DNA of 64,000 nt from Candidatus Bathyarchaeia archaeon (GCA_049517415.1 JBEKSC010000003.1:89733-153732); one strand, 5' to 3'. Counted from the stretch's first letter, positions 38,371 through 62,158 are shown. A program made the numbers and translations. Notes: generated by a model not told the origin, from the sequence alone.

Positions 38371-38509
38371 GGGTCCGTAGCTCAGCCAGGTAGAGCGGCG
38401 GATTGGGCACGTGTTTGCCAAGGCCGAAGCTCTTAACAGCCCGAGGGAGACCCGAAGGTCGAGAACCACAACAGTGGCCGACAAGGTTCAAATCCCTCCG
38501 GACCCGCCA
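38371..38509 (+). tRNA. tRNA-Lys(CTT) with three introns (38402-38428, 38436-38449, 38464-38484) and encoded CCA
   Basis: Removing three BHB-like introns gives GGGTCCGTAGCTCAGCCAGGTAGAGCG GCGGG CTCTTAA CCCGA AGGTC GAGGG TTCAAAT CCCTC CGGACCC G CCA; acceptor, D, anticodon and T stems pair. Confidence 0.88.
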
Positions 38510-38598: not shown

Positions 38599-38641
38599 GG
38601 TTCAAATCCGATTGCCCGCACCACCAGACCCACACACACAC
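38599..38641 (+). repeat. Site A: tRNA-3' mimic + 14-bp core (38617-38630, inverted relative to B-H) + (CA)n terminus
   Basis: GGTTCAAATCCGATTGCC|CGCACCACCAGACC|CACACACACAC; inverted counterpart of site H. Confidence 0.9.
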
Positions 38642-39299: not shown

Positions 39300-39320
39300 G
39301 GTCTAATGGTGCGCACACTC
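39291..39320 (+). repeat. Site B junction (core 39300-39313)
   Basis: GTGTGTGTG|GGTCTAATGGTGCG|CACACTC. Confidence 0.9.
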
Positions 39321-40632: not shown

Positions 40633-42033
40633 TTACCACGATCGTTTGTACGCTTGTTTACCCATGATCCATGTTTCGTCGACGTTGCGGTCGTCCCCAA
40701 CTACCATGATTGAGAACAACAGATCCGTCGCCTCTTGCATTGTGGTCGGCCCTTTCTTGCCGACCAAGAGGGACCCGCGCCAGACCATGGCTCTTTGACC
40801 GCCTTCCCAATCGAGTGCAACAAAGTCTGCTTCTTTGCCCGGCTCGAAGTTTCCGATGCGGTCGTCTATATACAGACCGTGGGCACCCCCCAGGGTAACT
40901 GAATAGAATGCCCTGTAAGGCGATAGCTTGTTCCGCTCAGACTCCTCAGGGTCTTCCCAGCGCGGATCGACGCTGCCGTCGAGCAACGTATTGTTGACCA
41001 TGCCGACCTTGTACGCCTCGTCAAGCACGTTGATCATCGAGAAACGATTGCCGCCGCCCATATCGGTACCAAACGAAAGTCTAACGCGATGATCCGGATC
41101 AGTGGCGCGACCGAGTCTAAACAGACCGCTGCCCAAGAACAGATTCGAGAGTGGACAGAAGGTGATCGAAGCATCGGCTCTAGCAACGCGACGGAATTCG
41201 GCATCGGACAACCAAACGCCATGGCCGCCAGAGAATTTCTTGCCAACCAGACCATATTTTTCGTAGACGGAGAGATAATCCTGACATTGATGGAATTCTT
41301 TCACGCCTCGGATTTCCGACGGGTTCTCGGAAATATGAGTGTTTACCCAACAATCGGGATGCTCCTGCTTCAGGCGTTGACATGCTTTCATCAAATCTGG
41401 AGTGGCGCCGAGCGCGAACCTCGGCGTGATGGCATAAAGATTTCTTCCTTTGCGATGATATTTCTCAATCAAACGCTTGCTATCCTTGTAGAAGTTTTCG
41501 GCGCTGTCCATAGAGTCGGGAGGCGCAAAGCGGTCCATACCAGTCAATCCCCCGAGAACCAGCATGTTGCGCCGAGTTGCTTCTTCAAAGAACTCTTCGG
41601 TGGCAACCGCGGATATGGTCGTGAATGCCTGACAGGTTGTGGTTCCCGAAGCAATCAGATTCTCGAAGAATCCGCGGGTGCCTTCTTTAGCGTACTCGCG
41701 ATCTTTATACTTCTTTTCTTCCGGGAAGACCCATTTGTTGAGCCATGGCAAGAGTTGTTGTCCGAATGCACCCAGAACCCGCGTCTGTGGGACGTGTATG
41801 TGACCGTCGACAAAGCCGGGTAGTATCAAGCGTTCTTTCAGATGTGTGATGGAAACCCCCGGGTACTTTGGCGAAATTTGATCATATGGGCCGAAGGCCT
41901 TGATTTTGCCGTCCTCGATAACCAGAAGGCCGTCCGGATGGAACCTCGCCGACGTCTCTTCGTGCCCAACGTGTTTCCAAGGATCGTCTATGAAATCAAA
42001 AAACGCGCCTCTAATCGCAACAACATTTACCAT
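40633..42033 (-). CDS. guaD: Guanine deaminase
   Basis: PGFVDGHIH.PQ, LLPWL...FPEE, AITPRFA, THISE, FCP.SN.FLGSG, GTD.GGG, GDDR. Confidence 0.9.
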   Translation of the reverse strand: MVNVVAIRGAFFDFIDDPWKHVGHEETSARFHPDGLLVIEDGKIKAFGPYDQISPKYPGVSITHLKERLILPGFVDGHIHVPQTRVLGAFGQQLLPWLNKWVFPEEKKYKDREYAKEGTRGFFENLIASGTTTCQAFTTISAVATEEFFEEATRRNMLVLGGLTGMDRFAPPDSMDSAENFYKDSKRLIEKYHRKGRNLYAITPRFALGATPDLMKACQRLKQEHPDCWVNTHISENPSEIRGVKEFHQCQDYLSVYEKYGLVGKKFSGGHGVWLSDAEFRRVARADASITFCPLSNLFLGSGLFRLGRATDPDHRVRLSFGTDMGGGNRFSMINVLDEAYKVGMVNNTLLDGSVDPRWEDPEESERNKLSPYRAFYSVTLGGAHGLYIDDRIGNFEPGKEADFVALDWEGGQRAMVWRGSLLVGKKGPTTMQEATDLLFSIMVVGDDRNVDETWIMGKQAYKRSW

Positions 42034-42149
42034 ACAACAAGTTCTCCTAACTCTGATTAGAGCATTTACAGATATCTACGCGTATTTATCATATATCCCC
42101 GAGGATGTTACTAATCGACGTTAACAACCATAAACAGATCTTGGTGTAA

Positions 42150-43565
42150 TTGAGACAAATTGATGTCGATGCGCTCAGGAGTCGACTGAAGGGACGGGCC
42201 TTCACTCCCGCTGATTCTGAGTTTAATGAAATCGCTTTTGGTGGTCTCTGGAACGAACTTCGACCCGATCGGCATCCCCAACTGATCGTGCGTGTTGTCA
42301 ACGACAATGATGTTATTGAAACGATAAATTTCGCTCGGTCGAACGGCATAAAAGTTGTAGTACGTGGCGGCGGACACAACTGGTGCGCTCCATCATTGAG
42401 AAACAGTGGCATAATGATCGATCTGCACAATCTCAATCAGGTTGTATCCATTGATCCTGATGCGCGAAAGGCTGTGGTTCAACCGATCATTAGCAACCGC
42501 GAGATGATCCAATATTTGAGCAAATACAACCTTGCCTACCCGAACGGACACTGCCCCGAGGTCAAGTTGAGTGGCTATCTGCTCAGCGGTGGCATGTCGT
42601 GGAATCAGGGAGAATGGGGCCCGGCTATCGGCAGTGTAGAAGCCATTGAGATGGTTACAGCCAACGGGGAGTTGATCACTGCTTCGAAAGATCAGAATAC
42701 TGATTATTTCTGGGCAGCGAGGGGCGCAGGTCCAGGGTTGTTCGCAGTTGCTTTAAGATATCACCTGAAATTGTATCCGCTCCCGAAAGCGATCACGACG
42801 AGCGCCTACTATTATCCGATGGAAAATCTTGTAGAAGTCGCGGATTGGCTTGGCTCAGTTACACACAGATTACCAAATAATGTCGAGCTGAGTTTCTTCT
42901 TGCTAAATGCTCCAGCAGAAATTGCCGACAAATGCAAGGCGAGCAACGGAAAAGTCTCCATGATCACCGCCACCATGTTCGCCGAAACACCGGATGAAGC
43001 GAAACCAGTATTGGCTATTCTCGAAGAATGCCCATTGTTGTCGAAGTGCATAAAGAAGGATGTTTGCAAACCCGCTACGTTCGAACAGCTCTTCGATGCT
43101 TCCGGTGCCTTATGGCCGGCACATCTGCGCAACACGGTCGATGCAATGTTCTCGAACGCCACATTACCAGAAATTTGTGGTTCGGTGCGTGATCACTTCG
43201 AAGCGTCACCTTCGAACCTAAATCTTCTCTTGTTCACCGTATTTACGGGCGAGAATGTTCCGGCGAAACTTCCCGACGCGGCCTTTTCGATGACCGCCAA
43301 GTTCTACGGCGGACCGTGGACAATGTGGGAAAATGCGGCCGATGATAAGACGAACATTGCCTGGCATCGCAAGTGCGTTGACCTGCTTGAACCGCATATG
43401 ATGGGACATTACGTGTCGGAGTCGAACACTGTTCAGTTCCCTGAATTCGTGGAGAAGTCATACACGAAATCGAATTGGGATCGCTTGGCTGAGTTGAGGA
43501 AAAAGTATGATCCCACCGGAGTATTCTTCGCATACTCAGATGGATTGACTGCGAACGCGGAATGA
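42150..43565 (+). CDS. FAD-linked oxidase (VAO/BBE family)
   Basis: RGGGH FAD site, WAARGAG, RL..L.KKYDP.G.F tail. Confidence 0.88.
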   Translation: MRQIDVDALRSRLKGRAFTPADSEFNEIAFGGLWNELRPDRHPQLIVRVVNDNDVIETINFARSNGIKVVVRGGGHNWCAPSLRNSGIMIDLHNLNQVVSIDPDARKAVVQPIISNREMIQYLSKYNLAYPNGHCPEVKLSGYLLSGGMSWNQGEWGPAIGSVEAIEMVTANGELITASKDQNTDYFWAARGAGPGLFAVALRYHLKLYPLPKAITTSAYYYPMENLVEVADWLGSVTHRLPNNVELSFFLLNAPAEIADKCKASNGKVSMITATMFAETPDEAKPVLAILEECPLLSKCIKKDVCKPATFEQLFDASGALWPAHLRNTVDAMFSNATLPEICGSVRDHFEASPSNLNLLLFTVFTGENVPAKLPDAAFSMTAKFYGGPWTMWENAADDKTNIAWHRKCVDLLEPHMMGHYVSESNTVQFPEFVEKSYTKSNWDRLAELRKKYDPTGVFFAYSDGLTANAE

Positions 43566-43726
43566 CCGCGGCCACAAGAAATCACAAAGGGAATTAACGA
43601 AGCCCTGAAAGAACAGGAATAACGATAGTCTGCGTGAGTACTACACGCAAGTTGCGAGTTTGTCGTATTCTTTTTGGACGGCTATAGCTTCGTCAAGTTT
43701 GTCTCTCACTGTAGTGAGTATGTCGA

Positions 43727-44026
43727 GTGGTCCTTGAATTGGAATTTGTTGACAACGCGCTCTTGGCGATGCATGGAATGCAAGCAAAGACAGATACAAG
43801 TACACCAGTTCTTCACCCGATAAAATGTCCACGATGCAGCCAGTCAAACGTAGCTGAATCGGGTTTTTGCTCAAAGTGTGGGTTGCCGCTGCAATTGAAA
43901 GTTGCCATGGAAGCTGAACAAAAACGAACAGAGGCGGACAGGTTGATGTCGCTCCTGCTTGATGATAATGAGGTGCGGCAGCTCATCGTCTCAAAATTGC
44001 GTGGAATGAACTTGACAAACATCTAG
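43727..44026 (+). pseudogene. C-terminal remnant of an archaeal tyrosine integrase (Zn-ribbon tail)
   Basis: VDNALLAMHG followed by CPRC...N......CSKCGLPL, resembling the tail after the catalytic Tyr of archaeal XerC-like integrases; no catalytic core upstream. Confidence 0.55.
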
Positions 44027-44302
44027 GCGAAAAGATGACTCAGCAGAGTAGGTTTCATTATTTTCGCTACGATCTGTCAAGTGTGGCGGACATAATTGCG
44101 CGACTTGAATCGCACTCAAAGTTCAACTCCAGCCGAGAAAAGGTGACGTTACCTTAACGGTTGACCGTCGAAGGTAAAACGCCTGCTGAGCAAGCGGGGA
44201 TAGAGGAACTGAGGAGTCTCTCAATCTCCGTACATTAATGTCCCATAATGCGAACACTAATATACCAGCGTCCATGCAATATAGTGCAGGAGAAATGTTA
44301 CT

Positions 44303-44776
44303 TTGAACACGGAAACCAGAAAGCTTACGCTTGCAGTCCTGCTCGCAGTCGTTTCAATCCTCGCGATTCAGCCTGCTTTGGTTCACGCGACCTCGCAAAC
44401 GGTAACGATCATAGCCCGAGGCAGCGCGACCTCGACAACCAGCACCGTTTCACCCAGCGCAAGAATCTACCTGAGAGGGATGGCGAACCTAAACGGTGGA
44501 AATATACAGCTCACCCAAATGAGCGGTATATTGCAAATCGGCCCAGTGTTTTACACGGTAATCAGAGGCCAGGGCCAAACCAACAGCCAGACCAACACTT
44601 TTCAGCTCAATTTGCAGGTAGGCGGAAATAATCCCGGGTCACTCGTACTTCAAGGGTACGCGACCCTAGGAGAAGGATACACCGTACTATTCACTCCACA
44701 ACAGAGCAACCTAGAAGGCCAATACTCACTCTGGCTGTACGGAGACCTTTTGATCACCCAGACGCCCTACAGCTAG
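44303..44776 (+). CDS. Secreted beta-rich hypothetical protein
   Basis: Signal peptide (RKLTLAVLLAVVSILA..VHA). Confidence 0.65.
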   Translation: MNTETRKLTLAVLLAVVSILAIQPALVHATSQTVTIIARGSATSTTSTVSPSARIYLRGMANLNGGNIQLTQMSGILQIGPVFYTVIRGQGQTNSQTNTFQLNLQVGGNNPGSLVLQGYATLGEGYTVLFTPQQSNLEGQYSLWLYGDLLITQTPYS

Positions 44777-44802
44777 AAGTCTCAGACTTAGCTTCGTTTC
44801 CC

Positions 44803-44823
44803 CTATTTTTTCTCCTTTTTTTT
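44803..44823 (+). terminator. T-rich archaeal-type terminator
   Basis: TATTTTTTCTCCTTTTTTTT just downstream of ORF 44303-44776. Confidence 0.5.
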
Positions 44824-44955
44824 ACGAGCCTCTATCTCGCTGGGTTTCGAGGTTTTCGGTTATCAACGGATTGGTAACAGCCACAAGAATTTCGGCCGTC
44901 AACCGACAACCTTACGTTACCCCTTTTCGCACAGAGCCCTTAGGCTTTCACGCGG

Positions 44956-45159
44956 TTACTTTCTTCTCGCACCGACGACGGTCAATGTAAGACCGCCTAA
45001 CAGGAGGAATATCCACTCCGTATCGACATGCTTTACGGTTCCTGTAAGGCCCGCCAACAGTAGTAATACCCCTGCTACCATGATCCCCTTATCCATATGC
45101 AAACCAATTTCGTGTAACCAAGAGTAGTTATTTACCGATGCCTTTGAAGCGTTCAACAA
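44956..45159 (-). CDS. Small membrane protein
   Basis: Two TM segments. Confidence 0.45.
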   Translation of the reverse strand: MLNASKASVNNYSWLHEIGLHMDKGIMVAGVLLLLAGLTGTVKHVDTEWIFLLLGGLTLTVVGARRK

Positions 45160-45390
45160 CTGGGATTATCGGCGTAACTGCGAACCATTTTCTTCTGTTT
45201 ATTCGATAACGTCCGTCGAAAACATTGACCTGGACACTGAGAGAACGTTCGTCATCTACGAACCCCGTAATCCTATCTAAATTCAATCTCAGTCACGAAA
45301 CCAACGACAAGTGGTTTCTGGTATAGAAAAATTGGGGGGGCGGTATCACTGATGCGACCGTCCAAATTTGAACCGTCGTCGTACGTCTAG

Positions 45391-45428
45391 GTGTGTGTGG
45401 GTATAGTGGTGCGCGCACACACACACAC
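45391..45428 (+). repeat. Site D junction (core 45400-45413)
   Basis: GTGTGTGTG|GGTATAGTGGTGCG|CGCACACACACACAC. Confidence 0.92.
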
Positions 45429-45447
45429 TTTCTGACGTAGGAACGAC

Positions 45448-45486
45448 GATCCTAATTACGATGGCCGCACCAATAGATACACACAC
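45448..45486 (+). repeat. Site E: internal degenerate tRNA mimic + core + CA tract
   Basis: GATCCTAATTACGATGGC|CGCACCAATAGATA|CACACAC. Confidence 0.75.
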
Positions 45487-45524
45487 GAAAGAGCGGTTAC
45501 CCGTCTTTGCCGGTTACGATGACT

Positions 45525-47264
45525 CTAGATAGGTGACGATTTCTCAGTCACTTCGAAGTCGGCGATGAATCCTGATTCTTTGAGGGCATTAAGAACTTTC
45601 GTCATTTCCTCACTGTGGGTACCTGCGTAAGCAGTCTTTCTTAATTGAAAAGCGATATGATATATCGTTTCATCAGCTGTCCGAGAGTAAGAAGCTAAGA
45701 TCATCTTTCTCCCTTTGGCGGGTCTTAGCCATTTGCCATTTTCACTCCCCATGTGTGCCCTAAAGGAGTCACTTCCTCCTAGCAAAGGTGCAATTCTGGG
45801 AAAGAATACACTGTGCAAAACGCTTGCTATGGGGTCTCCAAATACCCGGATTCCACCGAAGGTAGGTTTTAATCCTAATTCAATGTCGACGTCTGATCGA
45901 AGGGTCGCAGAATACTTGAAGTATGATGCAATCCATCGATCTTCTACTTGGTAAAGAGATCTTTTAGTGAAGCCTGACCTCAGAACATGGATCGAAAGAC
46001 GTGAACCCTTCAGGACGATTGAGGCCATAATATCATCTATTTTGTTGGCTGAAATGGATACTTCCTGGATCCTCTCGATAATCGTACCGATTGGAACGTC
46101 TTGAAGCTTGTCTCCCAGTTCATTGAGCACCGTAAGAAGCGCAATCTCGTTGACTGTAGCACCGAATTGGCACGCAGATAGAATCCTCATTACAACTGCT
46201 TCGTTAACGTCGAGAACACTTACGAATGAATCATATTCTTTTGTTCCCCTGAGCTGCTTCATGGCTTCATCTAACAGTGGCTTTTCGAATTTCATGAAGA
46301 GAGTAACATGCTTAGGACCAACCTCGATCCTCTCAACCGCAATATCATATGCGAAATGACAGAGCAAATTGATTTCAAATGGCATTCGATCTGTCGTTCT
46401 CTTGACTATACCGTCAAAGCCGCCATGAACTACTTCGAACGTAAGACCTTGCTTTACGAACTCGGCTCGTGGGAAAGCTAATGGCTTACTGATTGCATCG
46501 TCGACTATGCTCTCATTTGGATACGGTCCTAGCTCGATTTTATAAAAGAATCGGGGAAACGGCGAGAAGACATCACTTGCTTGCTCCAACAGTTTTGTGC
46601 TACCTGCAATCGTAAGACACATTCCAGGCATGTCCTGGAACACATTTCTGAGAATTTCCATCAGTGTCCTATTTGTAGTCAAATGATCGCCTTCGTCGAA
46701 CATTAGAACCACTCCTTTGCGATTCACGGTATCCTCTTTCAGCAACTTCACGAAATCGGTTAGACCGTCTCGCAAGATGATGTATGGAAATTGAGTGTTC
46801 TGAATTTCTTTGGCCTTCACAAGAAATGAGATTCCGGGAATCTGAATGCCGACCTCGTCTACGGAAGCGATGCCCTTCAGCGCCTCCCAAATCTTTGTAC
46901 CTGTAGTCTTGTCAATTAGTCCAGTTTCCGATGCTACTCTACTAAGTTCCGTCAATATAGTTCTGAAGAGCCGTAGTTCCTCTCCAGGTTTTACCATGTC
47001 TTCAGATAGGGGAAGCCGAGCGTAAGCTACTTTTCTTTCGGAAAGGTCCCGGGACAATGCGTCCAAGAAACTTGTCTTGCCTGAGCCTCTTCCGCCAATG
47101 ACAAGCAACCCGCCAACGGTGCCCCTTAATATCTGCTCACAGGCTATCACTGCATTCTTTATTTCGATCTCGCGATCAAAGAAAAGCTCTTTGCGGCTAA
47201 GCGGACCTAGATACTGGTAAGGATTCGCTATCCTAACCGATTCGATCAGATTGTTGAGTGACAG
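45525..47264 (-). CDS. Archaeal-ATPase/STAND-like P-loop NTPase (frame open upstream to CTG at 47264; ORF track starts 47150)
   Basis: Upstream in-frame NPY...FFDRE.E, Walker A GGRGSGKTS, Walker B LMFDEGD. Confidence 0.75.
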   Translation of the reverse strand: MSLNNLIESVRIANPYQYLGPLSRKELFFDREIEIKNAVIACEQILRGTVGGLLVIGGRGSGKTSFLDALSRDLSERKVAYARLPLSEDMVKPGEELRLFRTILTELSRVASETGLIDKTTGTKIWEALKGIASVDEVGIQIPGISFLVKAKEIQNTQFPYIILRDGLTDFVKLLKEDTVNRKGVVLMFDEGDHLTTNRTLMEILRNVFQDMPGMCLTIAGSTKLLEQASDVFSPFPRFFYKIELGPYPNESIVDDAISKPLAFPRAEFVKQGLTFEVVHGGFDGIVKRTTDRMPFEINLLCHFAYDIAVERIEVGPKHVTLFMKFEKPLLDEAMKQLRGTKEYDSFVSVLDVNEAVVMRILSACQFGATVNEIALLTVLNELGDKLQDVPIGTIIERIQEVSISANKIDDIMASIVLKGSRLSIHVLRSGFTKRSLYQVEDRWIASYFKYSATLRSDVDIELGLKPTFGGIRVFGDPIASVLHSVFFPRIAPLLGGSDSFRAHMGSENGKWLRPAKGRKMILASYSRTADETIYHIAFQLRKTAYAGTHSEEMTKVLNALKESGFIADFEVTEKSSPI

Positions 47265-47465
47265 ATGCTTTCACGCAAGGTTATTCGTATACGTGCAATC
47301 CTTTTTCTCTTTCGGAACGGGTAAATCCTGAGAGGACTTCCAGGCTCCGTAAGTACGACAGGAATGAAATACATCGTTCAGGATGCTCTGCTGAAACTAT
47401 TAGCACCTGTGTATCATTACTGCCGCGACGGGGGTTATTTGGCCAAGCGTCGTCAGTCGTTCTTT

Positions 47466-47497
47466 GTGTGTGTGGGTCCAATGGTGCGCACACACAC
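47466..47497 (+). repeat. Site F junction (core 47475-47488)
   Basis: GTGTGTGTG|GGTCCAATGGTGCG|CACACACAC. Confidence 0.92.
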
Positions 47498-47642
47498 AAT
47501 AACGGCATGAACGAAGGGTCCGATTTCTGACGCTCGCACCAGTGATGACATACACTAAAGGAGAAAAATGAAGCATCGCATGAGATAATTGCAGGTAACC
47601 ATCATTTCGCTCGCCTGATATCAAAAAACGACTTCGGATAGA

Positions 47643-48296
47643 CTAATCACGTACGCGTGCCCGTTCGAACAGCTTCAGTAGCAAATCGACAGTCAGGATG
47701 ATCTCAAAGCTCTCGACGTCGCTTTCGTTACCGGTTAGGTGATGCGAACTTGGATTTCTAAAGGACCCGAATATTCCTCTTAGTATTAGAAAGTATGATT
47801 CCCTCTCGCTTTCAGTTTCTCCAACGTATAGTCTTCCGGACTTTGGGTTAAATGCATAATCAATCAGTTGCTGCCCATAGACATCGAATTGGGCGCCGGA
47901 CTTGGCACGAATTTTCTCCTCTAAGACTACGAAGGCATTCGTGATAACGTCGTGGTAGTCCTTATCTTTACAACGTTCGAAAAGTAAAGAATCTATAATG
48001 CTCCGGTATTGCCGCAGTGCCGCTCCTGTTAATGGAGGCGCCTTCAGGTCTACTTCGAAATTAGTATTTTGCGTAACTTGGACTGACTTGACATAACCTC
48101 GGATAGGTGGATTAAGATCTGTAGGTCCTCGTGACATAGTCGCCCCTTCGATTCGACTTCGATAATCTACTCCCGTCGTAATATTCCTGACAAGAGTTGC
48201 TCTCAACTCCATGCCGCTAGATTGAATCCCTCGCACAATCTCTATTTCATCTCCTACGCTAATCCTAAGGTCAGTGCCATCCCACATTACTTTCAT
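47643..48296 (-). CDS. TIGR02391-like domain protein
   Basis: AF..LE.KIR, G..L...AF, G.FG.FRNP.SH motif. Confidence 0.7.
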   Translation of the reverse strand: MKVMWDGTDLRISVGDEIEIVRGIQSSGMELRATLVRNITTGVDYRSRIEGATMSRGPTDLNPPIRGYVKSVQVTQNTNFEVDLKAPPLTGAALRQYRSIIDSLLFERCKDKDYHDVITNAFVVLEEKIRAKSGAQFDVYGQQLIDYAFNPKSGRLYVGETESERESYFLILRGIFGSFRNPSSHHLTGNESDVESFEIILTVDLLLKLFERARVRD

Positions 48297-48364
48297 TTGA
48301 CCTACCCCGCAGTGGAAAGTTCCTCGTAATCTACGATCGGTCCATAAATTTCCAAAGCAGTCAC

Positions 48365-49606
48365 CTACTGATCCGATTTTCGTAAGTCTTGCTCAACTTC
48401 GAAGTATGCTAGGGCATGACTCTTCTTACCCAACTTAGAAAGTACCTCAGCAGATTGCTCCACAAAGGGGATCGCAACAAGACCACCGAGGGCAGCGCCT
48501 GTCAGCAATCCGATATAACCCGGTAGAGCATTGCCTACTGCTCCACCAAGGATGCCTAGCGATGCATGAATCATCCTTGTTGATAGTTTTCTGGTTCTAG
48601 CGATCTCAGCAGAAGCAGCTCGCGCTTCTTCAAAGGCCTTTTCTACGGCTTCTTGTCGGGGAAGTTTCTCAAATTGCCCAGAGGATGCAAAACGATCTAT
48701 CTCGAAAAGCAGCTTTCTGAGTTCTGCGGTCTTTCCCCGAAGTTCCACTACCTGCTCCGAACCAATGTCTTTGATCCATAGTATCTCTAGTTCTCTTACC
48801 AATAGTTTGGCTACCTCAACCGGGAATCTTTCAGCACGAGTAGCGAGGCCGATCTCGGTAGCTAAATGAAAATCCGAAGGCTGAAGAGTTACTACCCCCT
48901 CCATAGCCCTGAATTTCGGGTAGAAAATGAGGAGTTCGTCGAATTTCAGAAGCTCCTCCATCGACAAACGGCTAAGTCGCGAAAGCAGACCTGTGGCTAG
49001 ATCTTCATATCCGAATCCGCATAGAGATGCGTAAGCCGTTGCGAATAGTGGGATAAAGTCTTCCTTTTTCATGGTGCGATAACTAAGTCTCGGCATTGTA
49101 TCTGGAATCAATGATTCCACGAGCGATTTGTTCGTGCGGATCTTCTCAGCAGCCATTTCGAGACATGATTCGAAATAGCCCTCTCCTTTGTTCAAGTCAC
49201 ATATGTTCTTGAGGAAAACCTCTCCGATCATTTCCAAATAGAGAGGCTCTTTTTCTAGAATGGGGTCGAGATAATCTAGACCTACGTATCGTTCAGGGTT
49301 TAGAGTAGTTACAAGTAGGCGTTTCTGACGCCACAAGTCTAACACCAATTCGACTGAAAACCCGTATTCCTTCTTGAAATCCGCTTCCGTATGGTACGGA
49401 CGAAGAACCATGATTAGTTGTTCGAAGAAGGGCATCTGAACTGATATGGGAAGATCAATGAGGCAATTAGAATATGGTGCTTTGAAATCCCAACCAATTA
49501 GGTTCATTATGTTAAATTCTCTATAATCTCGGATGCCTCTCTCCGCCTGTTTTGTTGCGGCGTCTACTTGTTTGTTCACATATTCTTCGACCCATTTCTT
49601 ATCCAT
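48365..49606 (-). CDS. Hypothetical protein with C-terminal hydrophobic hairpin
   Basis: 413-aa ORF. Confidence 0.7.
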   Translation of the reverse strand: MDKKWVEEYVNKQVDAATKQAERGIRDYREFNIMNLIGWDFKAPYSNCLIDLPISVQMPFFEQLIMVLRPYHTEADFKKEYGFSVELVLDLWRQKRLLVTTLNPERYVGLDYLDPILEKEPLYLEMIGEVFLKNICDLNKGEGYFESCLEMAAEKIRTNKSLVESLIPDTMPRLSYRTMKKEDFIPLFATAYASLCGFGYEDLATGLLSRLSRLSMEELLKFDELLIFYPKFRAMEGVVTLQPSDFHLATEIGLATRAERFPVEVAKLLVRELEILWIKDIGSEQVVELRGKTAELRKLLFEIDRFASSGQFEKLPRQEAVEKAFEEARAASAEIARTRKLSTRMIHASLGILGGAVGNALPGYIGLLTGAALGGLVAIPFVEQSAEVLSKLGKKSHALAYFEVEQDLRKSDQ

Positions 49607-49906
49607 TTGCTAACCTACCCAATCTAACAATTATGAGATTTGTCCAGTGCAGAGAATCGAATGAAATATGATCGATCGCCAGCATTAACGATGATGTTTC
49701 GTTGGATATCTGTCAGGGCATCTCTATCATGCCCTGCTCGACATTGCGCACAAGCAGCGCTAGCAGCTCTTTGAGAGCGCCATAAGTGTGATCCTCATAG
49801 TTCTTTGCAATCCATTAGGTAGTCAACTGCGCGTTGGGATCTCCTTAAGAAACGATTTTTGATATCGAGCTTACTGGGTTCGGGCTGAACCTCAAAACAT
49901 CCATTC

Positions 49907-50695
49907 CTAGGTTAGGTTCAATCGCCTCTTCAGATACTTCTCACAATGCATCTCGCTCATGGCAGCCACGCGATCGCGAGTGGCCCTTATTTTTGCTATC
50001 GTCGGACTGAATTCCGTTGTCCTCGTCTCGACCTGCTCAACGAGCGACCTGAGCAACTCTATGCGAGTGGGTCTTCCACCGGCAATGATTTTCTGCACAA
50101 TCTCATCAATGAAAAACGTGGACATCTGCGTATGAGACGTAACACTCGTGAAAGATATCCCGAGAGAAGTTAAGGCTGCTTCAAGCGAAGGTCTGTGCCC
50201 GTATCCTCTAATCACGAGGATCTTGGAGGTAAGATTCTGACTACTAACCTCGGCTAATTGTTGAGCCAACTCTTCATCGCGCGTCTTGTTGAAAGTGGCT
50301 TGCTTGGACAGATTCTCTGTGAGCAATCGGCAAGCTTTTGCTAGTGGCATGTCTTGAAACTTTTGGAGAAAGAGCGGGTAGAATTGAGTGGATACAGCAT
50401 ATAGGGAGTATGGTGAGCGTTCGAGTAAGATGTGTTTTCCACTCCGATAGACCAGGGGCAGCAATCCGTTCGTGAAACCTTGATGAAATTGACCATATCG
50501 TCCTGAGGTGACTTGGAGTACATCGTCAACGATCAGATTCCCTCGTGACAATTCATTAAGTAAATTTAGGTTGCGATCATCCTCCTCTCTGAAATCTTGT
50601 TCAAGCAACACGATGTTCGCATCATCGAAGAGTTGCTTTAGCCTCGGAGTAATTGCTTCCGCTTCATGTGTCGAGAAATAAATGATGATGCTCAA
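49907..50695 (-). CDS. Hypothetical protein
   Basis: 262-aa ORF; IRGYGH motif. Confidence 0.6.
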   Translation of the reverse strand: MSIIIYFSTHEAEAITPRLKQLFDDANIVLLEQDFREEDDRNLNLLNELSRGNLIVDDVLQVTSGRYGQFHQGFTNGLLPLVYRSGKHILLERSPYSLYAVSTQFYPLFLQKFQDMPLAKACRLLTENLSKQATFNKTRDEELAQQLAEVSSQNLTSKILVIRGYGHRPSLEAALTSLGISFTSVTSHTQMSTFFIDEIVQKIIAGGRPTRIELLRSLVEQVETRTTEFSPTIAKIRATRDRVAAMSEMHCEKYLKRRLNLT

Positions 50696-50796
50696 GGATG
50701 CTCACATTTGTCAGGATGAGGTTCACGTTCGTATGTACCATCAGCAAATAACAAACAACATTGAGAGGGAGAGCAAAACTGGTGAACGGTTGGCCG

Positions 50797-52611
50797 TTAG
50801 TTCTTGGACTCTTTCATCTCAGTGATGCAGCCGTGAAGCGCGCCTTCGAGTTCTTCATAGATGAAGTCAAACATCGCCAGTTCGTCATATTTGAATCTCA
50901 TAACTCCAGAGCTGTTCGTAACGTATTCGTAGCTTTTTCCGTCAAGCTCGATATGGTGGTCCTTGAATGCTCGATCTAGTTTAGTCTCAAAATCTTTGTC
51001 TTGACCAGCTTTAAACAATTCAATACGCAAGCCGTTCTCATCTTTGCATCTCAAATAGCATAATGTGATTGATGCAATTGACCCAATTTGATCTTTAGCA
51101 TCGAAGAATGCAATCACTCTCGTAGCGCCCAAAAATGGCAATAGGTTTCCCTTCAGTTGGGGAAAGTTTTGCTCGACAATTCCAGAATATGCTGGAGGTA
51201 GGTTAGTGAAGAGCGCTTGCAAATTTCTTTGAACGCTTTCTGGAGAGTAAGCATCCCAGAAGTATCCGCCGTGAGGGATCCTGGAGTAGTCTGGTGGGTC
51301 ATAGAGACGATGAATTTCTGTAATGTCATTAGAGATCAAGTAGGAATGATATTCCTCGAATAACCCAAGTGGGATGTCTTTGTAGCCGATAGGAATCTTT
51401 GGAACAGGGCCATGGCGCTCTATTCTTGTCGTCACAAGCTCGTCTAATTTCTTCATTTCCTCGGGCATAATGTGATGGCTCAGCATATCGGGATTGAAGT
51501 ATGGTTTGCGGTACAAGCAGTCGAGGGGCGACTTCACTCCATTCCTATTTTCGCGCACCATGAGTCGAACAGCTTCTTCAACCCAGATCGGCAAACGACT
51601 ATAGAACGCAGTTTCTATCTCGGCCAGTGTGTAAGAGCCTTTTTTCTCTAATCCCAACTGCTCTGTGAATCTGTCAATGATCGCGAACATGAACTCTCTG
51701 GCTAAAGCATCGCTCCCTTTATGATCGAGTAGTTTTCCTTCGAATATTTGTCTCATCGATTCCTCTATTACTTCTACTGCATGTTGCTTCGGATGGATCT
51801 TGATCGGATTCTCAACAAAGTATCCCCTAATGCCGTCGATAGACAGCAGGTCTTGGGTTGCATCTATTGTCCTTATCTGCACAGAGTTTTCTTCAGGCTG
51901 GATGGGGTACAGGGTGTAGGTAATTGATTTAGAGGAAAAATCGCGATATGCAAGACCAACCTTCCAAGACCCGGGATAGAATCTTCTCTTTACCAGAGAG
52001 AATGGCCCATCCAGCAAAGCGTTCAACTCGTCCAAGAATTCGTGAATCTCACGAAATCCAGGGCTTGCGGAGCCGGCTGTTGTAAGAGTTGATCTCTTTG
52101 ACAGTTGGCTTAAGGTTACCTGAAGTTTGTCATATTCTCTTAGTTTCCTGTGATGCTCTTGCGAGATAGCAAGCCACTCCACGACATATCTTGTGTCTCT
52201 CCTGTCGATGACTTGAGTCAATGGGAAATGAACTGTAACGGTCTCCTGCCCGCTTGGTGGATTTACGTTCATGGGGACATGGTACCAGTAGGCTTTCTTT
52301 TGATGAACGTTCACGCCGACCAGTAGTACAGGATTGCTTGTTGTTATGGAAGCATACCCAAAGATAGACAATCGAATCTGAAGCTTTGGACTAGTACCAT
52401 AATCGTCCGGTAGTTTCTTGACTTGGATTTCGAGCTTTCCAATTGGACGATGATCTTGGTCGAGTATGTCCAAGTCGCCATCTATATCGGGAACAGTATC
52501 TTGCTGCCGGATATGAAGCATAACCTGATTTTCATCAACCAATTCCCTGAGAGTGTTTATGGCCATCACTTCTTTGATAGCTGTGGGTGGATAAGGCGCG
52601 GGTTTAGTCAA
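50797..52611 (-). CDS. DUF4365-like PD-(D/E)xK nuclease-domain protein
   Basis: N-terminal PDIDG.L...EIQVK, PVLLV.V....AYW. Confidence 0.65.
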   Translation of the reverse strand: MTKPAPYPPTAIKEVMAINTLRELVDENQVMLHIRQQDTVPDIDGDLDILDQDHRPIGKLEIQVKKLPDDYGTSPKLQIRLSIFGYASITTSNPVLLVGVNVHQKKAYWYHVPMNVNPPSGQETVTVHFPLTQVIDRRDTRYVVEWLAISQEHHRKLREYDKLQVTLSQLSKRSTLTTAGSASPGFREIHEFLDELNALLDGPFSLVKRRFYPGSWKVGLAYRDFSSKSITYTLYPIQPEENSVQIRTIDATQDLLSIDGIRGYFVENPIKIHPKQHAVEVIEESMRQIFEGKLLDHKGSDALAREFMFAIIDRFTEQLGLEKKGSYTLAEIETAFYSRLPIWVEEAVRLMVRENRNGVKSPLDCLYRKPYFNPDMLSHHIMPEEMKKLDELVTTRIERHGPVPKIPIGYKDIPLGLFEEYHSYLISNDITEIHRLYDPPDYSRIPHGGYFWDAYSPESVQRNLQALFTNLPPAYSGIVEQNFPQLKGNLLPFLGATRVIAFFDAKDQIGSIASITLCYLRCKDENGLRIELFKAGQDKDFETKLDRAFKDHHIELDGKSYEYVTNSSGVMRFKYDELAMFDFIYEELEGALHGCITEMKESKN

Positions 52612-53303
52612 TGCAGTATTCGCTCGGTGACCTTGCTATAGGTCTTGAATTGCGCCTCATCTCCAGCCTTCTTGCGGAGATAGTGAAGTGTACTCTTTCC
52701 AATCCCACGCTTTTTGGCCTCAGACTGCGTTAGTCCAAGAATCAAATTCCTAAGCGCTCGACTATCGTCCCTGTCAAGAACGGGTGAGGGTTCGGAGAAA
52801 TCAAGCGCACGAGACTTACCAGTCAAATATCTCCCCAATTCGCTTGTTTTCTCTTGAATCGCCGTATTCCACTTCATTCTTCTACCCTTGTGCACCACGC
52901 CGGAGTTGAATCGCTCACGTAACACTTCGATGAATCGCTGTCTAGCTTCAGGTTCAAAGCGATACCGGTAGTCGTCCCCAGTGAAATAGAAATCATGCAA
53001 CTCAAGAGCCTTCGATTCAAACGACTGAATCACGGATAGGTCGACTAGCCATCTGATCGGTTCCTGAAGATCGTAAACTAAACTTTCCTTTGTCTGGTAA
53101 GCACTGAAATCATGCAAGAATCCGACCGCAGGCTCCAAGCCAACCGCGTTAATGGCGATACGGCATTCACCCTCAAGAAAACCGTAGCCATAGTTCAAAG
53201 CGGCATTGAATGGGTCGGAAGTATTATTTTGATGACTCGAAGTCATCCGACCTTGAAACTCCAGCCACTCAGGCAGAGTCTTGCTAAGCGTATCTCTCCA
53301 GTA
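52608..53303 (-). pseudogene. cas1: 5'-truncated casposase-type Cas1 (about the first 175 codons missing)
   Basis: YWRDTLSKTLPEWLEFQGRMTSSHQNN..LNYGY..GFLH..LVYDLQEP..GIGKSTLHY; clear paralog of 55434-56666; in-frame stop upstream. Confidence 0.88.
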
Positions 53304-53395
53304 AAACTCCGGGATATGCTATCTTATCGTTTAGTGTGCCGCTTGCCGAGCATTGGAGGCAATGTAATTTGAACCGTCGTCCGTCGTTAGTAAAA

Positions 53396-53431
53396 GTGTG
53401 TGTGTGTGGGTATAGTGGTGCGCACACACAC
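53396..53431 (+). repeat. Site G junction (core 53409-53422)
   Basis: GTGTGTGTGTGTG|GGTATAGTGGTGCG|CACACACAC. Confidence 0.92.
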
Positions 53432-53493
53432 CTAGAGACTTCGTCCCTTCACACGAGAAAACGGAACTCTCGTGAAAGTCTACGGAGTTGACC

Positions 53494-54720
53494 TCATGCT
53501 AGCCATGATTCGATTTCTCTCCATTCTTTCGCAATGATGATCCTTCTGTCCTCTACGAGAGATTGTATTCGTCCTATCTTCTTCTCATTCCATGGTTGGA
53601 GAAGCAGAATACCATATTTGCGTCGAGCGAGTAGATTATCCCACTTTCGTCTCTTAGCGGTAACAAAGCTCGTTATATTGTCAATGTTATCGTCAATGAG
53701 CATATCGGCGTCTGTCGCTGCCTTACCTGAATTCGTAGTATTAACGAATTCCACTCCATCGAACTGGAATTTGCTCCGAAGCCAGCCTTCTGTATCCACT
53801 TGAGTTTCGTATGGTCGACTACTTGCAACCTTAATGTTTGCTCTCATGCGCATTGTTTCGATAGGTCCTTTTGCGCCCTCCATTTCCGGCATGCTCGCCA
53901 CAAACTTCGGTTCCTTTAGATAACGAAGAATCAAATCTGTAAACCGCTCATCCCCGACCATAGTATCCCATTCAGTGATGTCCGATTTGGTCATGTTCAA
54001 GTGTTTCTCTGGATTAGCGCGTGCCAAGACATGTGGGACTTGGTCAGCAAGCACGCCATCTACGTCAAGTGCGACTGTCGGAGTCCTTTGCAACTTTAGT
54101 TTCCTTAGGGCGCTGGTGGTTAAGAGCTCATATTTTCCATGTCGCAAATATCTCGAAGCGAAAATTCCCACAAAATATGCGACTAGAGCTAGAAGATTTC
54201 CAAGCTGAAACCCAGATAGAGAATCGAAGAGTGACCATGGCAAATATGCTATTGCAATGAAGTATACGGAAAATAACGCCCAAAACATTGGTACACTGTT
54301 TGGCTTCAACGTTTTTGGGTTGAACCAACCGTGCTCTAGGACGGTAGAAAAGCCGTGAATGCAGTACATGAAGTAAATGACTGCCAACACCAAACCAAAA
54401 TCGCGTATAGAGTCAACGGATAAGACCAGACCTGTGTAAGACAATGCTATGAGAGAATCCAAAAGAAACCGGATCCAAGTCCAATTTGACCTCAAGTAAG
54501 GTAGGCTCTGGACCGATCTATGGTAATAGACCCAGCTAACAGCAATCACGAAAAAGGAAACCATCAAGGTGGCAAGAGGAACGAAATTAACCAAGAGATA
54601 AGTGGCGTAAGGATGTTGGAACAACCTCGCTCGAGTTTCGACGCCTAATGCTAGAACTACAACGAATAATAGCTCAACAAACTGAGAATAGTTCTTCGAA
54701 CGTTCATTTACCGACAACAA
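53494..54720 (-). CDS. Multi-TM domain fused to HAD 5'(3')-deoxyribonucleotidase-like domain
   Basis: About 6 TMs, then ALDVDGVLAD, SSR, T..WL, K...DMLIDDN, QPWN. Confidence 0.75.
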   Translation of the reverse strand: MLSVNERSKNYSQFVELLFVVVLALGVETRARLFQHPYATYLLVNFVPLATLMVSFFVIAVSWVYYHRSVQSLPYLRSNWTWIRFLLDSLIALSYTGLVLSVDSIRDFGLVLAVIYFMYCIHGFSTVLEHGWFNPKTLKPNSVPMFWALFSVYFIAIAYLPWSLFDSLSGFQLGNLLALVAYFVGIFASRYLRHGKYELLTTSALRKLKLQRTPTVALDVDGVLADQVPHVLARANPEKHLNMTKSDITEWDTMVGDERFTDLILRYLKEPKFVASMPEMEGAKGPIETMRMRANIKVASSRPYETQVDTEGWLRSKFQFDGVEFVNTTNSGKAATDADMLIDDNIDNITSFVTAKRRKWDNLLARRKYGILLLQPWNEKKIGRIQSLVEDRRIIIAKEWREIESWLA

Positions 54721-54751
54721 ATGTCAGTCCTCGCTTTCAATTCAGTTTCCG

Positions 54752-55444
54752 TTAAGGGGGCTTGCCGATTATAATCGACTGGATGATTAACGTCGCGCCT
54801 AAAGTGAGCAGGGGAACATATGCGAGCCAATGGTTACGCCGCAACCACATCATTAGACCGAATCCATGCCGGTCTTGGTAGAAGTCGTGTAGCACACGGG
54901 CTGCTCCATCATTAGCGATCAACCGCATGTCGGAATCAACATCATCCATCAATCGAGTGGACAGTTGAACCAAGAACAGCCAGAGTACATACAATACAGG
55001 TGCTGATGCCGCCAATGCAACTCTAGCTGACTGGGAAATAAATTCTGAAGATGTGGCAGCTGCTCCAAGCAGCACGAAAGCCGTTGGTATGAAGAGACTC
55101 CCCATCGCTATCATTGATTGTTCACGCCCTCGGCGAGAAACATCCAAGAATCTATCCTTGTCCTTCCCTTGTAGATGCTGAATATCGCCTCGCAGGTTTT
55201 CCAGTCTTCTTTTCCAATTCGCAAGCGCCACTTCGTATGCTACGAGATATGCGAATAGAATCAAAGAACCAAGAACTAGTCCTATCCCAACTGCAGGCGA
55301 CAACAGGCCGAATAGACAAAACCCCGAAATTGTGCACAGAATTAGACTGCAAAAGAAGTAAACGGCTGATAGAACAAGCAATGCATAGCCTACTGTAACT
55401 GCATTCAACCTAAGTATTGTGGTTGCTCTCAAGTCATGTTGCAC
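54752..55444 (-). CDS. Hypothetical membrane protein
   Basis: Several TMs; start overlaps cas1 stop. Confidence 0.6.
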   Translation of the reverse strand: MQHDLRATTILRLNAVTVGYALLVLSAVYFFCSLILCTISGFCLFGLLSPAVGIGLVLGSLILFAYLVAYEVALANWKRRLENLRGDIQHLQGKDKDRFLDVSRRGREQSMIAMGSLFIPTAFVLLGAAATSSEFISQSARVALAASAPVLYVLWLFLVQLSTRLMDDVDSDMRLIANDGAARVLHDFYQDRHGFGLMMWLRRNHWLAYVPLLTLGATLIIQSIIIGKPP

Positions 55445-56666
55445 CTATTGGAACCAGTCTATCACGAATGCTCGCATGAATCCGGAACTGTTTTCGATGG
55501 ACATTCTTGCGTAGATAATGAAGGGTACTCTTTCCGATTCCGCGCTTTTGAGCTTCGGACTGTGTCAAGGTCAGAATTGCTTTTGTAATTGCTCGATTAT
55601 CGACCTTCTCAAGGAAAGGCGCTGGCTCGCAGAAATCCACTTTGCGAGATCGTCCATTCATGAATCTTGCCAGTTCAATTGTTTTCTCTTGAATTACGGT
55701 GTCCCATTTCATGGTGCGATTCTTGTAGACTACTCCTGAGTTGAATTTCTCTCGCAGAACCGCGATGAATCGCTGCTTAGCGTCGGGCTCAAAACGGTAC
55801 CGGTAATCGTCTCCCGTGAAGTAGAAATCTGATAGCTTCAACGCTTCAGACTCAAATGCCTCGATGACCGATACGTCGGTTAGCCATCTAAACGGCTCCT
55901 GAAGATCATAAACCAAAGACTGCTTTGTCTGATAATCGCTGAAATCATGCAAGAAGCCAACTGACGGTTCAAGGCCTACGGCATTGATGGCTTTTCGGCA
56001 TTCGGCTTCAAGGAAACCATAACTGTAGTTTAGGGTTAAGTTTACGGGATCTGAAGCATTGTTCTGGTGACTTGAAGTCATTCGTCCCTGAAAATCAAGA
56101 TGCTCAGGCAGAACCTTCCCGAACGTCTCCCAATACCTCCTAGCCACACGCCCCTCAACCACGCGAATGTCCGGTGCAGTTGTAGCTCTACTCAGCTTGG
56201 AAGATTCAAGTCTTGTGAGCCGAATTTCCTTTTGGATATCATAACGTTCACCGAGCCAATCTAGAACCTGCAAACTCCTCGCAATCTTAGCTTGGACTAG
56301 GGCTCTGGCTATCGTGAACTTCTTCTTCGTGTCACTTGCTGCTTGAATCTGCGCAGCCCTAAGATCAGCCTTAACGGGCATCGGTGGGAGAATACTCGAA
56401 ATCAAAGTTCCATCGAAGCTCATTACGAAAACTGGAACCTTGTTCCTCGAAAGCCAATGTAAGGCACGTAGGGAAATGTAGCCACTGTGCCCGTCGATCA
56501 CTATGCTACTGTACGGGAATCGTCTAGGTTTGAACCTCAGAGTGGTCGCGAGTTTGTCGTCTTCGCGTCCATCGGTGATTACGAGTTCGGAACGCGATTT
56601 CAAATCCTGAACAGTAATCTTGACGCCCCAACCGGAAAGATGAAGCGGATTCAAGCGTCTCAGCAC
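55434..56666 (-). CDS. cas1: Cas1-solo, casposase type (C-terminal HTH)
   Basis: NPL..SG.G, IDG..G.IS..A..WL, EGRVA..YW, ASD..N..LNYSY, AVGL.PS.GFLH, LVYDLQE.FRW, C-terminal GIGKSTLHY HTH as in archaeal family-2 casposases; catalytic E/H/E positions present. Confidence 0.92.
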   Translation of the reverse strand: MLRRLNPLHLSGWGVKITVQDLKSRSELVITDGREDDKLATTLRFKPRRFPYSSIVIDGHSGYISLRALHWLSRNKVPVFVMSFDGTLISSILPPMPVKADLRAAQIQAASDTKKKFTIARALVQAKIARSLQVLDWLGERYDIQKEIRLTRLESSKLSRATTAPDIRVVEGRVARRYWETFGKVLPEHLDFQGRMTSSHQNNASDPVNLTLNYSYGFLEAECRKAINAVGLEPSVGFLHDFSDYQTKQSLVYDLQEPFRWLTDVSVIEAFESEALKLSDFYFTGDDYRYRFEPDAKQRFIAVLREKFNSGVVYKNRTMKWDTVIQEKTIELARFMNGRSRKVDFCEPAPFLEKVDNRAITKAILTLTQSEAQKRGIGKSTLHYLRKNVHRKQFRIHASIRDRLVPIGAT

Positions 56667-56671
56667 CTGAG

Positions 56672-56962: not shown

Positions 56963-57065
56963 CAGATATCACATTTGGTATGCTAGTCATACCGTCATAC
57001 TCTACGTTGACTTATAAGTGTGGCCATAAAAAGCGCCCCCCGCAGGTAAAACGCCAAAAACTGAG

Positions 57066-57097
57066 TTTGCCAAAAACATCTCGGTAGGATTGGCAAA
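57066..57097. promoter_or_regulatory. Inverted repeat in divergent promoter (candidate operator)
   Basis: TTTGCCAA-N16-TTGGCAAA between divergent operons. Confidence 0.4.
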
Positions 57098-57153
57098 TCA
57101 TGGGGACATTCGATTAAATATCGGTCGAGCATCGGCATTACTTTCGACAAAAC

Positions 57154-57734: not shown

Positions 57735-57784
57735 GAAGCTGACCAGCCGAATGGTTCACTTCTCAACTCCCCCATTTTTCCATA

Positions 57785-62026: not shown

Positions 62027-62069
62027 GTGTGTGTGTGGGTATAGTGGTGCGGGCATCCAGATTTGAACT
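62027..62069 (-). repeat. Site H: tRNA-3' mimic leader + core (62038-62051) + (CA)n terminus
   Basis: Minus strand AGTTCAAATCTGGATGCC|CGCACCACTATACC|CACACACACAC. Confidence 0.92.
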
Positions 62070-62133: not shown

Positions 62134-62158
62134 GGTTCAATTACCTCCGGACCCGCCA
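62134..62158 (+). repeat. attR-like copy of tRNA-Lys 3' end
   Basis: GGTTCAATTACCTCCGGACCCGCCA. Confidence 0.88.

Follow-up and report, generated by a model that had tools for sequence, protein, structure and literature searches.

Why do the ends of transposon-like cassettes in an archaeal genome carry short imitations of a tRNA gene 3' end that point into the cassettes themselves? The question is raised by a stretch of 64,000 nt from Candidatus Bathyarchaeia archaeon (GCA_049517415.1, JBEKSC010000003.1:89733-153732), hereafter called the window, in which five cassettes (C1 to C5) form an array and one of them encodes a casposase, the Cas1 protein of casposons. Casposons are the proposed ancestors of the module that serves adaptation in CRISPR (clustered regularly interspaced short palindromic repeats). 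Our analysis suggests that 32-bp casposase sites copied into the ends of the elements have probably been reused there by sibling elements, which would give rise to nested cassettes with doubled ends. A first-pass annotation had listed six tRNA-like stretches in the window, named A, D, E, F, G and H. We call D to G, which lie inside cassette ends, pads. The genome holding the window is denoted G000 and its contigs are always written as contig C2, C3, C4, C8, C9, C39 or C48; G004, G014 and G018 are relatives' genomes, and L-numbers denote loci of relatives.

The unit shared by these stretches is a site of 32 nt. It consists of an 18-nt leader (GGTTCAAAT followed by 9 nt, mostly ending in GCC or GCT) and a 14-nt segment beginning with CGCACCA (hereafter the 14-mer). 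The T-loop box TTCAAAT[C/T] ends 8 nt ahead of CGCA, and the next element tip begins 14 nt past that boundary. All six stretches lie where the first-pass annotation placed them, and their spacing from T-loop to CCA is, as it had claimed, identical to that of genuine tRNA 3' ends of G000, e.g. tRNA-Leu GGTTCGAATCCCCTTCCCCGCACCA. Its unit of 25 nt was too short, however: between CCA and the CA tract that follows there are always 7 nt, which brings the unit to 32 nt. We trained a 32-nt weight matrix on 13 distinct occupied sites of G000, all outside the window (scores in Table 1). At a threshold of 18 bits it finds 71 sites in G000 versus 0, 1 and 0 in three shuffles, which is far above chance. 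We took the 87 non-tRNA sites of at least 20 bits from G000 and 18 relatives' loci; measured from the leader, the first CA tract comes at exactly 14 nt in 37 and at 12-18 nt in 50 (these 37 included); it comes at 36 nt in one site, and 36 sites have none within 52 nt.

The stretches are casposase target sites and not tRNA genes, as several lines of evidence support. No tRNA was called at any of the six: ARAGORN with default settings found 0 genes in the window, its intron-allowed mode found only the host tRNA, and the Rfam models gave 0 matches, in agreement with the earlier remark that 5' tRNA halves are absent. Judged by eye, there is no pairing between the bases ahead of the T-loop box and those behind it, and neither the tRNA nor the Rfam models gave a cloverleaf with a 5' half. 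In the T-stem/acceptor part the sites are AT-rich (TNNNNTGCC) and all tRNA tails of G000 are GC-rich; the matrix gives these tails 18-31 bits, versus 31-46 bits for intact sites of the same genome. Most tRNA genes of G000 have introns and encode CCA, and several tRNA-like tails, with 18-25 bits, go uncalled. The sites are best described as free-standing mimics of a Leu-type tRNA gene's 3' end. The ending had been called Leu-like before, and the guess was apt, since a genuine tRNA-Leu(CAG) gene in L027 has 7 nt and a CA tract behind it.

An alternative hypothesis could be that the stretches are attachment-site scars, i.e. 3' pieces of tRNA genes that tyrosine-integrase elements with tRNA gene targets have left behind. 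The island that contains the array is indeed bracketed by the 3' end of the host tRNA as a 25-nt direct repeat (at 38485 and 62134), G004 has tRNA-Leu-like and tRNA-Lys-like 3' fragments beside its array, and the tRNA-Lys tail has scattered copies in the genomes of the genus. We give this hypothesis a very small probability, because the sites differ from the tRNA tails as described above, keep a fixed distance from the CA tips in a single orientation, and no integrase domain was found in the 32 open reading frames (ORFs) of the island.

Copies of the site lie inside the ends of the elements and are conserved there. Pads D, E, F and G begin 16-20 nt inside the outer CA tract, behind ACGAC-type repeats, and face inward, just as the first-pass annotation had it for its internal sites. 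The proposed profile check gave the same position and orientation in homologous ends: 23 of the matrix sites of G000 are subterminal and inward-facing and one is of an outward-facing type, and 14 of 31 sites in relatives are subterminal (in 12 loci from four other genomes), 7 of these 14 being occupied. The end bearing pad D matches 18 of the 22 genus genomes, the homology covering no more than the part between the tip and the pad's inner edge (query 329-400). The pads of D, F and the right end of C3 share the 14-mer CGCAyCAGTGATrm and then diverge. A scan of 58 tips of G000 (at most 1 mismatch, at most 60 nt from the tract) found the T-loop box near 17 of them, 9-26 nt from the tract, against about 0.3 expected by simple arithmetic. 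The remaining 41 tips are without an intact box, and C5, the cassette with an intact Cas1 gene, has a pad at neither end; the claim that each element brings its own targets did not hold in that general form.

Pad D had been taken to be empty. Its CA tract is indeed missing, the 25-nt part being followed by GTGATACC; the emptiness is uncertain, because CCGCCCCCCC, which comes after the 14-mer, is similar to the GC-type tip that another type of element has. Neither a partner end of such a GC-type occupant nor that family's next motif GATTAACTTTACGACG was found at D. The second tip type, CCGCCCCCGCCG... followed by GATTAACTTTAyGACGCTG, is seen on G000 contig C9:21031 (-) and contig C39:5157 (+), in L017 at 6065/17076 and in L019 at 7577/14767. 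These GC-tract elements make use of the 32-bp sites too, and their 14-bp duplications in L017 and L019 are perfect.

The pads have the appearance of sites that were used for landing. Among 41 subterminal sites, a second CA tract follows at 12-18 nt in 25 (about 60%) and at exactly 14 nt in 18. On contig C39 two identical 66-bp outer modules run into unrelated sequence (20/20 identical upstream, 3/30 downstream), and contig C2 has as many as three modules one behind another (positions 1035-856). We compared 84 pairs of similar sites (at least 27/32); among the pairs listed the identity downstream is about that of chance, 2-12 of 30, and similar pads have either CA-type or GC-type tips behind them. 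Of 105 genomes of the order, 39 have the pattern of an occupied site, the control giving 0 matches, and among the 150 matches listed there are at least 8 same-strand pairs 51-66 bp apart, i.e. stacked modules.

These observations bear on a rival explanation in which the subterminal copy is a mere docking site within the inverted repeat, serving excision or synapsis, the second CA tract belongs to a repeat in two parts, and no nesting took place. Such a role would agree with the constant joining of the pad to ACGACG repeats, with the similar inner motifs at both ends of C4, and with the unoccupied pads at contigs C4:127538 and C2:167476, which run on into shared element sequence (...AAAGAAAA...). 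According to partial text of Béguin 2019, integration requires no more than 5 terminal nt, which leaves the remaining repeat for another step, and Methanosarcina ends have a comparable AACGCAACGC repeat. A docking site is hard to reconcile, on the other hand, with a tip-to-pad distance that varies (9-26 nt) while the distance from pad to inner tip is fixed at 14 nt, with identical outer modules continuing into unrelated sequence, with the stacking of three modules, with similar pads preceding tips of either type, and with an intact element, C5, that lacks a pad. We regard this explanation as rather unlikely.

We propose that nesting probably came about in the following way. The casposase encoded in C5 and related copies would act on the 32-bp sites, and each insertion would duplicate a 14-bp segment starting with CGCA(CCA), the T-loop box being 8 bp ahead of the cut. 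If the enzyme reads the same box in the target and in the end of an element, a sibling element could insert 14 bp past the leader of an inward-facing subterminal pad, and E and F would be pads occupied in this way. If few terminal bases suffice for the enzyme, the outer tip and the far tip of the inner element could be mobilised together as one composite unit, and the second 14-mer of the pad would be left behind. Such a composite move would explain the doubled ends of C3 and C4, the flanking by the array's own 14-mers, and the unduplicated 14-mer of the pad. The composites C3, C4 and those of contig C39 are in fact flanked by the array's own 14-mers. We infer both the use of pads as targets and the step of composite mobilisation.

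Several observations weigh against pad reuse. The 14-mers of E and F have no direct second copy in the window; a search with the 14-mers of E, F, A, H and D, allowing up to 3 mismatches, found no direct-orientation copy behind a GT tract there. The inner units of C3 and C4 are flanked instead by inverted 14-mer-like segments belonging to two pads, and at C4 the inner motif CAyAC TAAAsG on both sides can be read equally well as a long two-part inverted repeat. The T-loop boxes of E and F are degenerate (GATCCTAAT, GGTCCGATT), so that in their present state these pads would be poor targets, and the intact element C5 has no pad. No homologous pair of ends with and without an insert was found in G000 or in the 22 genus genomes. 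BLAST of the 120 nt beyond 13 unoccupied pads against G000 gave only self-matches, one match to a Cas1 paralogue and one duplicate contig end, and the inner unit of C3 has a DNA homologue in 0 of the 22 genus genomes. The middle five letters of the array 14-mers vary (CTATA, CTATA, TTGGA, CTATA, TTAGA), which is not what repeated duplication of one site predicts. Site A is inverted relative to the remaining array, and no (+) copy of its 14-mer exists at the meeting point. A Methanosarcina mazei casposon studied in vivo in 2023 carried its own 14-mer to a new site, reversed, and a target-site-carrying intermediate was proposed (PMC10359463, partial text); by analogy, such transport would fit the unequal 14-mers and the inverted A end. 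The earlier suggestion of nested capture thus keeps the pads with a second tip at 14-nt spacing on its side, and the capture itself stays inferred, as neither a second 14-mer nor a before-and-after pair was found. The first-pass annotation had proposed to look for strains with the D pad occupied; in the genus genomes the homology of the D end stops at the inner edge of the pad.

The doubled ends could also have been made by homologous recombination of a subterminal pad with an occupied free-standing site over about 32-45 conserved bp (pad, 14-mer and CA tip), by which an outer module would be grafted on and no casposase step is involved. This would account for the missing second 14-mer of the pad and for inner units lying between two pads, and the genome does contain dozens of near-identical sites (the 84 pairs above). 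It requires, however, that a 14-mer and a tip that match are in the pad beforehand; the stretch of homology is short, with breaks at the variable positions, and the existence of pads in the ends is left unexplained. We consider recombination an improbable source of the doubled ends.

A further possibility comes from sites that face each other. L014 has two pads head to head (2930-3001), one in each end of an empty 'shell' element, with only CACACACA between them, and a similar structure is present on G000 contig C2 at 167339. Pairs of inward-facing sites bracket the inner units of C3 and C4, and A and H bracket the whole array. Paired pads might form a symmetric dock for a casposase tetramer, so that inner cassettes are inserted or swapped without classical duplication in a Cas1-driven cassette exchange; we hold out only a slim chance for this. 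If true, the stacked 50-66-bp modules of site plus short tip would stand, as a living intermediate, between the end of a casposon and a leader-repeat-spacer unit of CRISPR.

Public sequencing runs add information on copy number. The stretch is contained in 20 runs, which are possible source runs, with sample types of peat, wetland or soil. By its nearest protein cluster, which is based on few records, the organism probably belongs to Nitrososphaerota. Contigs of 4 runs are identical to the window and bridge 43001-47495. In the search for polymorphism at D, E, F and G, all read joints had sides of 21-40 nt and none was informative either way. Joints between cassette junctions have sides of 21-33 nt at 90% likeness and therefore derive from other copies of the repeats. 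Word depth across 43001-63000 in runs X1, X2, X6 and X19 is 1.4-5 times higher in the bins with cassette junctions than in neighbouring bins, which fits junction sequences being multi-copy in those communities.

The sites are only partly independent of host tRNA genes. The first-pass annotation had proposed capture independent of host tRNAs, and G000 agrees with this, as 0 of 9 tRNA-overlapping sites are occupied; relatives do not, as three ARAGORN-called tRNA genes are followed by 7 nt and a CA tract, namely the tRNA-Leu(CAG) of L027 and two intron-bearing tRNAs in L025 and L026.

The array (38631-62036) has a G+C content of about 0.46, versus 0.50 in the host part, and each of its five cassettes has a CA tract at its start and a GT tract at its end (Table 1). 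At every junction a GT tract is followed by GG-N5-TGGTGCG and then by a CA tract; in minus-strand letters, neighbouring cassettes are separated by a 14-mer CGCACCA-N5-CC. The order on the minus strand is leader H, then C5, C4, C3, C2 and C1, with a 14-mer ahead of each. Leader H has the intact Cas1 element, with its identical flanks, as its neighbour, the truncated Cas1 copy, in C4, lies farther off, and C5 is presumably the newest element. By analogy, this order fits repeated insertion next to the leader, as in the tandem casposons of Methanosarcina and in CRISPR arrays.

Table 1. Features of the cassette array and its surroundings (positions in the window; bits, score of the 32-nt matrix)
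Feature	Position	Strand	Remarks
Host tRNA gene with intron	38371..38509	+	Intron-allowed ARAGORN, contig C3:128103-128241; 3' end GGTTCAAATCCCTCCGGACCCGCCA; tail 14.5 bits
Site A	38599..38630	+	GGTTCAAATCCGATTGCCCGCACCA + CCAGACC (first 25 nt to 38623); 14-mer CGCACCACCAGACC, then CA tip of C1; 42.3 bits
C1	38631..39298		DUF4760 gene 38698-39207 (-); left end ACGACGACGG, then decayed T-loop box
C1/C2 junction 14-mer	39300..39313	-	CGCACCATTAGACC; target-site-duplication type
C2	39314..45399		200-bp piece, second CA tip at 39515, decayed pad at 39536; amidohydrolase and FAD-oxidase genes
Pad D, right end of C2	45343..45374	-	25-nt part 45350-45374; 16 nt inside CA tract after ACGACGACG; 14-mer CGCATCAGTGATAC; 31.4 bits
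C2/C3 junction 14-mer	45400..45413	-	CGCACCACTATACC; same letters as H and C4/C5 14-mers
C3, whole	45416..47474		P-loop ATPase gene
C3 outer left-end module	45416..45479	+	CA tip, AACGAC, pad E 45448-45479 (25-nt part 45448-45472, then ATAGATA and CACACAC); 14-mer CGCACCAATAGATA; 24.3 bits
C3 inner unit	45480..47413		Second CA tip 45480-45486; P-loop ATPase gene 45525-47150 (-)
C3 right-end module	47414..47474	-	CA tip, ACGAC repeats, decayed pad (TTGGCCAAAT...), 14-mer CGCGGCAGTAATGA, then TACACAG
C3/C4 junction 14-mer	47475..47488	-	CGCACCATTGGACC
C4, whole	47489..53407		Truncated Cas1, DUF4365, Hypoth_Ymh
C4 outer left-end module	47489..47548	+	CA tip and pad F 47517-47548 (25-nt part 47517-47541, then GTGATGA and CATACAC); 14-mer CGCACCAGTGATGA; 20.4 bits
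C4 inner unit	47549..53341		Tips CATACAC TAAAGG left, CACAC TAAACG right (reverse complement); truncated Cas1 52608-53246 (-)
Pad G, right end of C4	53344..53375	-	Leader 53358-53375 intact; 14-mer decayed, CGCACCA part lost; 15.3 bits
C4/C5 junction 14-mer	53409..53422	-	CGCACCACTATACC; identical to 14-mer at H
C5	53423..62036		Adjoins leader H; identical 14-mers both sides; intact casposase gene; pad in neither end
Casposase gene, Cas1 with C-terminal extension	55434..56666	-	410 aa; Pfam Cas_Cas1 5e-52
Site H	62038..62069	-	Leader AGTTCAAATCTGGATGCC + 14-mer CGCACCACTATACC; 25-nt part 62045-62069, then CTATACC and CA tract; 39.0 bits
Second copy of host tRNA 3' end	62134..62158	+	23/25 nt; direct repeat with 38485-38509

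The host tRNA, whose gene closes the host part of the window, is suggested to be a tRNA-Lys(CTT) by its anticodon loop CTCTTAA. The array may sit in an integrative island of older date that carries the sites; in G004 the distance between a full tRNA and a tail fragment is 22.4 kb, with a similar island between them and an H-like leader alongside. In relatives the left and right flanks of the island are separated, by 560 kb and with inversion in G014 and by 390 kb in G018, so that no empty locus could be reconstructed. H is the free-standing leader of the tandem array. Site A had been counted among the sites that come with a cassette, which the comparison with the nearest relative, G014, does not bear out: A and the 90 nt between it and the tRNA-Lys gene are kept in position there, and A is thus not shown to have come with a cassette. 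In G014 a second site, 64 nt beyond A, heads an array. A decayed module upstream of A was considered because of TATAGGTGCGTGCACC; the conservation in G014 neither favours nor excludes it.

The cassettes differ in their cargo. C2 has ordinary-looking metabolic genes between transposon tips (39539-44776; amidohydrolase, FAD/BBE oxidase, ABM-like), and its cargo adjoining pad D has no DNA homologue in the genus. Its 200-bp piece (39314-39514) has inverted ends, CACAC TCATGAAAGAT ... ATCTTTCATAAAGT, and lies directly against the CA tip that follows, a 14-mer being absent there; ATCTTTCATAAAGT+CACACACA of this piece recurs on contig C48. The cargo of C4 (47643-52611) is defence-like in look, with Hypoth_Ymh (TIGR02391), a 604-aa DUF4365 protein and two proteins without a family match. 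C5 contains a 75-aa remnant of an rve-type (IS481/IS3-like) transposase at 61266-61493.

The enzyme and its sites are of the kind found in family 2 casposons. Residues 9-404 of the window Cas1 align to residues 22-411 of the 431 in chain 6opm_A, the M. mazei casposase (E 7e-71), and the alignment takes in the C-terminal part, which CRISPR Cas1 does not have. By this alignment the window Cas1 is a family-2-type casposase, with a predicted helix-turn-helix (HTH) at its C-terminus. The casposase of Aciduliprofundum boonei requires TCAAATC 8 bp upstream of its 14-15-bp duplication (PMC6614799), and in M. mazei the 14-bp duplication starts with a conserved CGCA, the final 4 bp of tRNA-Leu (PMC4779613, PMC6977970); as far as the letters go, the geometry of our sites matches these rules, taken from parts of the papers, one for one. 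Terminal inverted repeats (TIRs) are present as CA/GT tracts and ACGACG repeats at both ends. Identical 14-mers flank C5 and the elements of L017 and L019, and the remaining junction 14-mers differ at 2-3 letters. The insertions are at tRNA gene 3' ends or at look-alike sites, the latter making up most sites in G000.

These elements differ from family 2 in lacking PolB. Domains were called with Pfam on the 32 island ORFs and with NCBIfam on 20 of these; no PolB domain was found in them, nor in 22 ORFs of L017 and L019, where the largest ORF is a 487-aa TPR protein in the Cas1 elements (410 aa in C5). Searches of G000 with PF03175 (PolB) and PF12942 (amoA) gave no match, but their controls gave no match anywhere either. 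PolB-less elements with a family-2-type casposase are seen at 53423-62036 in the window, on contig C8:18847-22869, in L017 (6079-17044) and in L019 (7591-14735), and their cargo varies, with an NT5C-like membrane protein and a peptidase A4 in the window and HNH, TIR-domain and TPR proteins in L017. The array is not of the integron type either, as no integrase domain was found among the 32 ORFs and the junctions consist of tip, 14-mer and tip rather than attC. In general, the elements are of the family 2 kind in enzyme, target rules, duplication and tandem arrays, with PolB missing.

If the sites in the ends are reused as we propose, such a transposon would carry its own copies of the integration site: it would no longer depend on host tRNAs, would seed new sites at each landing, and relatives would pile into its ends, which would account for the arrays and doubled ends of G000. 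The data also point to a PolB-less casposase lineage with varied, partly defence-like cargo in soil and peat archaea. The site is short and portable at 32 bp, which makes the claim easily testable in vitro.

Compared with known systems, the closest are the family 2 casposons of Methanosarcina (MetMaz-C1 etc., at tRNA-Leu or look-alike intergenic sites). By sequence they appear to share Cas1 with the C-terminal HTH, and they share the 14-bp duplication from CGCA at a tRNA tail and tandem arrays with a common duplication and one copy decayed (PMC4779613, partial text). Their ACG-type repeat (AACGCAACGC) is about 20-30 bp inside the tip, an equivalent place, and L034 has a free tRNA-like site: at this contig end of Methanosarcina sp. 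UBA10923 a casposon end is flanked by GGTTCGAATTTCACAACT + CGCACTATACCACC, a free-standing look-alike of a tRNA tail and not a tRNA gene. They differ in having PolB, which was not found in the window or in the L017 and L019 elements, and in their tips, GGGATATAGG there and CA or GC tracts here. An inward target copy was not found in four Methanosarcina casposon ends, where the best inward match is 10-11 of 22 (shuffle p 0.29-0.78); there is one outward match of 13/22 (p 0.004). Literature searches, covering listings and passages of papers, gave no account of target-site copies inside casposon ends, nor of PolB-less casposons, and the integration-site copies inside element ends are the feature that the present elements would add to known casposons.

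AciBoo-C1 (Béguin et al. 2016, 2019, partial texts) has the same TCAAATC T-loop box 8 bp upstream, the same 14-15-bp yardstick and the same small need for tip sequence; its site is a host tRNA-Pro gene, whereas here the sites are mostly non-tRNA and many lie inside elements. The SarPi solo-TIRs of M. mazei and the proposed target-carrying circular intermediate resemble our short end-only units by CGCA sites, and the reversed transport of the element's own 14-mer resembles the unequal, inverted 14-mers here; in the available parts of these reports, only the 14-mer is carried, with no leader, and outside the inverted repeat (PMC4779613, PMC10359463). The integration by CRISPR Cas1-Cas2 at the leader-repeat boundary differs in that our units are kilobase cassettes with their own tips, and no Cas2, repeat hairpin or CRISPR array was found in the window (0 Rfam matches). 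It is the same in its leader-dependent, polarised insertion beside a duplicated unit, the newest unit being at the leader like C5 beside H, and element ends that contain a copy of leader plus duplicated unit bear on the path from a transposon end to a leader-repeat array.

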